Virus record (IMG/VR): IMGVR_UViG_2663762857_000030 | Coordinates: 1-8,473 of that record | Strand: one strand, 5' to 3' | Source of the DNA: a virus | Lineage: Duplodnaviria; Heunggongvirae; Uroviricota; Caudoviricetes | DNA length: 8,473 nucleotides | Shown here: piece after piece, positions 8,241 to 8,473 of the stretch | Layout: each line of letters begins with the position of its first letter | Position numbering within the stretch: the stretch's first letter is position 1 | The notes under the pieces: generated by a model | Seen by the model: the letters and a program-made list of their open reading frames with translations, nothing else | Told to the model about the DNA's origin: nothing | Databases searched by the model: none | Program-made: the position numbers and the translations under genes

Positions 8241-8262
8241 GGTGTAGTCACTGGTGTAGTCA
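8241..8262. repeat. Direct repeat GGTGTAGTCA x2 (12-bp period) near the element/host junction; candidate recombinase arm-type sites
   Basis: GGTGTAGTCA at 8241-8250 and 8253-8262, about 70 bp from the point where the host membrane-protein ORF terminates. Confidence 0.35.
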
Positions 8263-8326
8263 TTTTGCGATTTATGGCACTTTTTGTAGTGCAAATTATT
8301 TAATTAAATCAATGTGTTAAGTGAAA

Positions 8327-8473
8327 TTAGTTATATATAACAGCAATAAATAATGCGAGAATAAACGGCACGATGATCTCGGCGGCAAAACGGATACCGC
8401 AGAGAATAATGACCAGCATTCCCAACATAATGACGATTTTTAGGCCATTGAGCGTGATGATCGGCTTTGCCAT
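8327..8473 (-). CDS. 5' part of a host inner-membrane protein gene (48 codons then stop); probably interrupted by the element
   Basis: Minus-strand ATG at 8473-8471 (window edge). Translation is [48 protein letters not shown], then TAA (complement of 8327-8329). It is a hydrophobic transmembrane segment that I believe matches the N-terminus of the E. coli TqsA/YdgG transporter; unverified. Too short to appear in the ORF track. Confidence 0.45.

Follow-up and report, generated by a model that had tools for sequence, protein, structure and literature searches.

What lies at the right end of this viral DNA, and where does the element stop and the host begin? The window, by which we mean the whole stretch of 8,473 nucleotides that was analyzed, closes with a hydrophobic reading frame that runs leftward from its right edge and stops after 48 codons, and two short direct repeats lie a little further in. 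The original prediction took the frame for the start of a TqsA/YdgG-type transporter gene that an element had either inserted into or replaced, put the junction near 8330-8340, and proposed that the repeats might be recombinase arm-type sites. The comparisons described below identify positions 8241-8473 as the attR of an integrated satellite. The full reading at which we arrive, and which we hold to be very likely, is that this is the attR of a PICI of about 11 kb, integrated site specifically in tqsA, with the GGTGTAGTCA repeats serving as arm-type sites.

The boundary between element and host lies within tqsA

Positions 8100-8473 were compared by megablast with 5,426 complete Escherichia coli genomes. 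The outer part, 8337-8473, was found in 5,423 of the 5,426, where it is annotated as the start of tqsA (AI-2 transporter TqsA), and the whole 8100-8473 arrangement was present in just 243 of the 5,426. A 160-bp probe across attB was contiguous in 5,174 of the 5,423 genomes and interrupted in approximately 249 (4.6%). When an empty site (L002, NZ_CP026345), an occupied site (L001, NZ_CP025903), and the window were compared base by base, host identity ran from 8473 down to 8337 and, from the other side, up to and including the same 9 bases. The boundary between element and host thus lies at 8336/8337. This breakpoint against uninterrupted tqsA falls inside the interval that had been predicted, and the reference genomes are not collinear with the window through 8330.

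The nine shared bases, ATAACAGCA at 8337-8345 (a feature without strand), are the att core, or crossover region, and form a direct repeat found in attL, attR, attB, and attP. The empty site, attB, reads GTTAAGA-ATAACAGCA-ATAAATAA, and the two ends of the integrated element read GTTAAGA-ATAACAGCA-TTTTATCA at attL and GTTATAT-ATAACAGCA-ATAAATAA at attR, the latter in the window. The predicted attP is GTTATAT-ATAACAGCA-TTTTATCA, and TGATAAAA-TGCTGTTAT is the reverse complement of ATAACAGCA-TTTTATCA. Within the host gene, the core corresponds to codons 43-46 of tqsA.

The left end of the element is outside the window; the duplication of the core and the 3' part of tqsA were seen in two occupied genomes, L001 and L005. 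In both of these, the core repeat that had been anticipated at the far end of the element is indeed there, ATAACAGCA standing beside a P4-type tyrosine integrase gene. Because the 3' part of tqsA has been kept and the core has been duplicated in the occupied genomes, the event reads as insertion rather than replacement. Of the two alternatives in the original prediction, only the first survives, and the comparison supports what would be a simple insertion into tqsA without restoration of the gene. The element in L005 is divergent, with another replication module and an arm that is 83% identical, and it sits in the same core; the presence of elements as different as L001 and L005 in one core indicates several independent integrations at one position.

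A perfect 12-bp palindrome, GTTATATATAAC, occupies 8330-8341, across the boundary between element and core, and attB retains only GTTA....TAAC of it. Core-type inverted repeats were sought around the core, and this palindrome was the only notable one; it may be related to core-type binding by the integrase.

A truncated tqsA at the right edge of the window

The leftward frame is present as originally described, a 48-amino-acid, ATG-initiated reading frame at 8327-8473 on the minus strand with a TAA stop at 8329-8327. The stop had been placed inside an AT-rich stretch; the stretch itself, TTATATATAA, is real and lies at 8331-8340, but the stop is 2 nt to the left of it. Translation against the full-length TqsA of 344 amino acids gave the same residues 1-46 in both, as expected for the start of a TqsA/YdgG-type transporter. 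Codon 46 of the stub straddles the junction with its Ile kept and is followed by element-derived Tyr, Asn, and TAA.

The ATG start, the uninterrupted hydrophobic frame, and the stop codon are also what a genuine small membrane-protein gene would have, with the likeness to tqsA incidental, and a naturally short gene had been named as the finding that would count against a junction. We give this reading practically no credence. The window is 100% identical in DNA to the first 137 nt of tqsA over 8337-8473, and this identity ends exactly at the att core. The full 344-amino-acid protein can be read in 95% of the E. coli genomes, and in occupied genomes RefSeq labels the frame as a partial "pheromone autoinducer 2 transporter" pseudogene. 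The tqsA identity, the break at the edge of the core, and the intact site in most genomes together refute an independent small gene. The frame at 8327-8473 (minus strand), which we call tqsA', is a pseudogene remnant that has only the first hydrophobic segment of the 344-amino-acid AI-2 exporter.

The rest of the gene has not been lost in the occupied genomes L001 and L005, where the 3' part, of about 300 codons, survives intact at the opposite end of the element, some 11 kb distant. This 3' part is directly preceded at attL by an in-frame stop, and the junction supplies no start codon. The 3' part at the left end is promoter-less, and neither fragment is repaired by element sequence. As judged from the two junctions, tqsA would be inactive for as long as the element is resident, and precise excision should restore the gene. 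Mutants in tqsA/ydgG are said, in work of Herzberg et al. from 2006, to be altered in AI-2 export and in biofilm. A 60-amino-acid reading frame at attL (L001 5276-5458, minus strand) was considered as a tqsA fusion or restart and was rejected, being in frame but separated from tqsA by a stop; it had no Pfam or PHROG match and is probably spurious.

The inserted element is a PICI

The insert in L001 is 10,976 bp long with all genes on one strand, and its gene set comprises int, an AlpA-family helix-turn-helix protein, Icd-like proteins, a D5-type primase-helicase, a single-stranded DNA-binding protein (SSB), a lambda-E-like major capsid protein, and a lambda-D-like decoration protein. Pfam matches, the L001 annotation, and BLAST assign positions 1-8336 of the window (plus strand) to the right-hand 8.3 kb, approximately, of such an integrated satellite, with the integrase and alpA genes beyond its left edge. 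The same Pfam and annotation evidence places the D5-type primase-helicase at 1436-3190, the SSB at 3754-4164, the lambda-E-like capsid protein at 4884-5939, and the lambda-D-like decoration protein at 5951-6286, all on the plus strand. Icd-like and small reading frames are also present, and the right arm is noncoding. Nine copies of CTGTCTACC, in both orientations and with at most one mismatch, make up an iteron array at 3204-3431, directly after the primase gene, which is presumed to be the PICI replication origin. Exact copies of the lambda cosN 12-mer, GGGCGGCGACCT, are found at 6774-6785 on the plus strand and at 7513-7524 on the minus strand. No tail or lysis genes appeared in the annotation or in Pfam and PHROG scans. 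By BLAST, the window is a mosaic relative to L001, with 93 to 99.9% identity in blocks, and no complete E. coli genome had a full-length match of at least 99% to the element in the window.

Several features by which PICIs are recognized are found here. The size is within the range of roughly 8 to 15 kb, int stands at one end, alpA is present, pri/rep is followed by iterons, and the genes run in a unidirectional rightward order. Lambda/phi80-type cos sites occur without tail or lysis genes, and the tqsA core, which we derived independently, is the core published in Table S1 of Fillol-Salom et al. (2018, ISME J, PMC6092414). The element is a PICI of about 11 kb, a phage satellite of the EcCI042/EcCICFT073 type. 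In that table, EcCI042 and EcCIK1516 are entered as 11-kb PICIs with tqsA as the att gene and ATAACAGCA as the core, so that site, core, and size (about 11 kb) agree with the element studied here. The gene order is the same as well (int, alpA, icd-like, pri/rep, ori iterons, capsid/decoration homologues, cos sites), and the difference is that the window's element is a mosaic variant, as measured against L001, the best-characterized occupied locus. EcCICFT073 likewise has capsid and head-decoration homologues and two cos sites, and induction of its alpA by a helper phage was shown in the same study (PMC6092414).

The host gene, too, has been listed before, among the genes disrupted by integrated elements (Bobay et al., 2013, PMC3603311) and among the candidates for "regulated gene integrity" (Mageeney et al., 2020, PMC7192596). 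There, as here, tqsA is a conserved E. coli gene that is disrupted without restoration; neither paper contains att-arm anatomy or a demonstration of a switch phenotype. Searches of main-text literature for PICIs together with tqsA, or for EcCICFT073 together with arm-type sites, returned nothing, the tqsA entry standing only in a supplementary table. The junction and the site are already known and catalogued, and the locus, a textbook example of attR in a listed satellite at a listed site, has little importance standing alone. For annotation, it provides the exact limits of the element (junction 8336/8337, core 8337-8345), and it identifies PICI insertion as the cause of the tqsA pseudogene in about 4.6% of complete E. 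coli genomes.

Several further features of the right-hand part of the window were observed. The two opposed cosN 12-mers are contained in a 78-nt inverted repeat (6743-6820 and 7478-7555), and between its arms lies a 144-amino-acid reading frame (6875-7309) whose N terminus resembles the small terminase family phrog_57; in the slot of this frame, L005, L007, and L008 have an annotated terminase small-subunit gene of 180 codons. Four GTGAC motifs with an exact 10-bp period lie at 7887-7921 and are followed by several inverted repeats that contain GTCA/TGAC. This array could be a protein-binding array, and the segment that holds it, 7872-8059, is absent from L004, a relative found between roxA and phoQ. 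An Rfam scan of the whole window at E values of up to 1 gave only two sub-threshold chance matches to miRNA families, at 3277-3360, and none near the junction.

Tandem repeats are conserved in both arms of related elements

Both direct repeats that had been noted at 8241-8262 are exact copies of GGTGTAGTCA on the plus strand, the first at 8241-8250 and the second at 8253-8262, with a 12-bp period; the second copy ends 74 bp before the core. At a tolerance of one mismatch, the window contains three matches to GGTGTAGTCA, compared with 0.27 expected, and none of 200 shuffled sequences reached three. An identical pair, CGGTGTAGTCACTGGTGTAGTCA, is located in the opposite arm, at L001 5399-5420, in the same orientation; the int start follows 25 bp downstream, and the attL core is 128 bp distant. 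No further exact copy was found elsewhere in the 32-kb L001 locus. The pairs are embedded in a larger module. The int-distal arm module at 8191-8266 (plus strand) is a 76-nt direct repeat, 76% identical to L001 5349-5424 in the int-proximal arm at the opposite end, and it contains, in addition to the arm repeats, the conserved blocks TTGTTYCACGTTGT and GTGCA.CGA.

The related elements that were compared are integrated at tqsA (L001 and L005), in the intergenic region between roxA (ycfD) and phoQ (L003, L004, L006, and L007), and in an ISEc45 transposase gene (L008), with EDL933-type capsid-forming PICIs included in the roxA-phoQ set. In six of six complete elements, GGTGTAGTYA occurs exactly four times, two copies per arm with a 12-bp period, and it was not found outside the arms in the roughly 190 kb that cover these elements. 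The spacing is conserved just as closely: across the six, the gap from repeat to core is 115 to 128 bp on the int side and 74 to 79 bp on the distal side, and the gap from repeat to int start is 24 to 25 bp. An alignment of 13 arms (A1) showed the pattern GGTGTAGT.A.T to be invariant in both units. Two arm types can be told apart, with GTCA(C/T) in the tqsA elements and GT(T/C)AA in the remaining ones; several elements each have one distal repeat with the "other" base at position 9 of the 12-mer.

The capsid-forming PICIs of the EcCICFT073/EDL933 type at ycfD (roxA)-phoQ share the arm module with the element studied here, including the tandem GGTGTAGTYA pair in both arms and the same distances, and their AlpA is the same. 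Their integrases are 88 to 91% identical to that of the tqsA element. They differ in core and target (GGRCATATTT, intergenic, with no gene disrupted) and in arm variant, which is GTTAA rather than GTCAC and goes with a correspondingly different N-domain signature of the integrase. They also have an HK97-type capsid, portal, and terminase module where this element has the lambda E/D-like pair.

The blocks TTGTTYCACGTTGT and GTGCA.CGA (8208-8238; columns 24-54 of A1) are nearly invariant in both arms of all elements, and they may be the site of a second protein, for example, an excision factor or a host factor.

The repeats are probable arm-type sites of the integrase

The integrase contains an arm-binding domain, PF13356 (Arm-DNA-bind_3; E = 1.4e-18, residues 8-95), and the catalytic tyrosine-recombinase domain PF00589 (E = 2.9e-16). 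Across the element set, integrases are 83 to 96% identical overall, and 19 alignment columns separate the tqsA-type enzymes, with GTCAC arms, from the others, with GTTAA-type arms; 14 of these 19 columns fall in residues 5-57. The ISEc45-site integrase (L008) has the N-domain signature and the arm variant of the roxA-phoQ type and a different core-binding region (119-175). AlpA, by comparison, hardly varies, and the two residues at which it does are not correlated with arm type. The sample behind this covariation is small, consisting of two types of arm that differ at two positions of the 12-mer.

An arrangement of the same kind is annotated in phage P4. Its GenBank record marks 12-bp tandem "attP arm sequence repeats" that flank the core, as here; one pair precedes int by 15 bp and is separated from the core by 112 bp, and for the other pair the distance to the core is 53 bp. 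Both systems use a heterobivalent tyrosine integrase with PF13356 and PF00589 and encode a small helix-turn-helix protein of the AlpA/Vis family nearby. The relationship is distant, the P4 Int being only 24% identical to this integrase (E = 5e-13), and the P4 arm motif is different, of a GGGGGCA type. A further, inverted arm copy covers the int start in P4 and was not seen in this element. The P4 core, of 20 bp, lies in a tRNA-Leu gene that integration reconstitutes, whereas the 9-bp core here lies in a protein-coding gene, which is not reconstituted.

Since it is the integrase N-domain, and not AlpA, with which the repeats co-vary, and since their tandem layout in both arms matches that of the annotated P4 repeats, we infer with good confidence that the integrase binds the GGTGTAGTCA repeats as its arm-type sites. 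The original suggestion of recombinase arm-type sites has gained in strength from the second pair in the other arm, the PF13356 domain, the conservation in six elements, the covariation with Int, and the P4 layout. The assignment of arm sites in this satellite family appears to be unpublished.

A different ligand would leave the junction unchanged, and the repeats might instead bind an AlpA/Vis-like regulator-excisionase or a host factor or form the operator of the int promoter. The position of the int-proximal pair, 24 to 25 bp upstream of the int start codon, is operator-like. In P4 and KplE1, the int promoter and an att arm share sequence, and directionality factors bind in this region as well (Piazzolla 2006, as cited), and the conserved blocks TTGTTYCACGTTGT and GTGCA.CGA beside the repeats leave room for more than one protein site. 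An operator for int alone, however, would have no need of a second, identical pair 74 bp from the core at the opposite end of the element. AlpA is nearly invariant, with variable residues that do not segregate with the repeat type, whereas the arm-binding domain of the integrase does segregate with it, and the annotated arm repeats of P4 have the same tandem layout in both arms. We consider a ligand other than the integrase improbable. Use of the repeats both as arm sites and as an autoregulatory operator is compatible with the integrase reading.

Outside the arm-binding domain, five columns (129, 133, 142, 174, and 248) separate the tqsA-type integrases of L001 and L005 from those of L004, L006, L007, and L008. 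In enzymes that are about 90% identical, these residues are candidate determinants of core-site choice.

A circular contig carries the predicted attP

IMG/VR was searched with the attP junction that had been predicted, GTTATATATAACAGCATTTTATCA, and one contig was returned, L011 (IMGVR_UViG_3300045988_152974). It is 11,098 bp long and has a 119-bp terminal direct repeat, which marks it as a circular assembly, with 10,979 bp of unique sequence that is 99.95% identical to the L001 element. The attP junction lies at L011 104-127, where the right arm (the equivalent of 8227-8345) leads through the core into left-end sequence and on to int. Since a circular contig carries the predicted junction, this in silico evidence suggests that the element excises, in circular or concatemeric form, or is packaged. 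Coming from a collection of viral contigs, it is also the one indirect pointer to induction, replication, and packaging by a helper phage.

The same contig bears on the state of the element in the window. Its left end and the tqsA 3' part are beyond the window, and none of the complete E. coli genomes matches the mosaic element over its full length at 99% or more; the remainder of tqsA in this particular genome might accordingly have been deleted or replaced, and the element might be a fixed, decayed remnant. We regard this as highly improbable. In the two occupied genomes that were fully examined, the tqsA 3' part has been kept and the core is perfectly duplicated. The window has an intact right arm with intact arm repeats and an intact core, and the attP of the circular, excised element matches 8227-8345 at 99.2% identity. 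The reading frames are intact across the window, which speaks against decay.

Between the arm sites and the core there is a candidate IHF bending site, AATCAATGTGTTA at 8307-8319 on the plus strand (consensus WATCAANNNNTTR). It is the sole match to the consensus in the 8,473-bp window, with 0.34 expected over the whole window, and the exact match is kept in five of seven elements (L001, L003, L004, L006, and L007) and is imperfect in L005 and L008. The match is suggestive of an IHF bend at 8307-8319, between arm and core, and we infer the binding from the consensus. A promoter and terminator scan of 7500-8473 found no sigma-70-like promoter and four terminator-like hairpins, all weak. The hairpin within the arm, 8277-8292, was rejected as a terminator, being weak and not conserved in L005 or L007.

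With the circular form taken into account, integration of an insertion-type satellite with integrase arm sites can be outlined as follows. The N-terminal domain of the P4-type integrase would bind the two arm pairs and its C-terminal domains the core, and a host-induced bend, presumably by IHF, would lie between arm and core, giving an intasome organized as in phages P4 and lambda. The integrase would recombine the attP of the element with ATAACAGCA in tqsA codons 43-46 and leave the core duplicated at both ends. Integration would split and silence tqsA, with the 48-codon stub on the right and the 3' part of about 300 codons on the left. Excision, presumably after induction of alpA by a helper phage, would regenerate attP and an intact tqsA. 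Arm pairs, core, and a probable IHF site provide a consistent attP anatomy for E. coli PICI integrases.

Two extensions are more speculative. That the PICI acts as a reversible switch of AI-2 export is, in our view, rather unlikely; if it were true, the resident PICI would keep tqsA off, helper-induced excision would restore the gene, and export of a quorum signal would be coupled to satellite and phage activity. Separately, we would give a similarly low chance to the idea that a handful of integrase residues set core specificity. The integrase family in any case forms a natural retargeting series, with one arm architecture and three cores (tqsA, roxA-phoQ, and ISEc45).

Some published att cores are arm repeats

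The arm repeats also bear on entries in the published list of PICI att sites, since three published "att cores" are really these repeats. For EcCIDI14, at an IS110 site, the published "att site core" is CGGTGTAGTTAATGGTGTAGTTAATT (PMC6092414, Table S1), which is the tandem arm pair. In L008, compared with an intact ISEc45 copy (L010), the crossover is a short, imperfect GTGA overlap at 5300-5303 and 16146-16149. The arm repeats of L008 are at 5432-5453 and 16045-16066, and the crossover lies 128 and 79 bp further out.

The published "core" of the yejM-luxR group of PICIs is TTTGTAGTTATACGTTTGTAGTTATACGG (PMC6092414, Table S1), and this, too, is the arm pair, TTTGTAGTTATACG being present twice. 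In EcCI11368.1 of the O26:H11 strain 11368 (L012, NC_013361.1 3040000-3052000), a duplicated core, CTCTCGTGCC, is found at 1516-1525 and 10293-10302. The arm pairs of this element, at 1663-1685 and 10209-10231, lie 137 and 61 bp inside the core, and two inverted copies precede int at 1692-1716. Since CTCTCGTGCC, the duplicated core, forms the 3' end of the tRNA-Pro gene adjoining yejM, the yejM-side PICIs target a tRNA gene.
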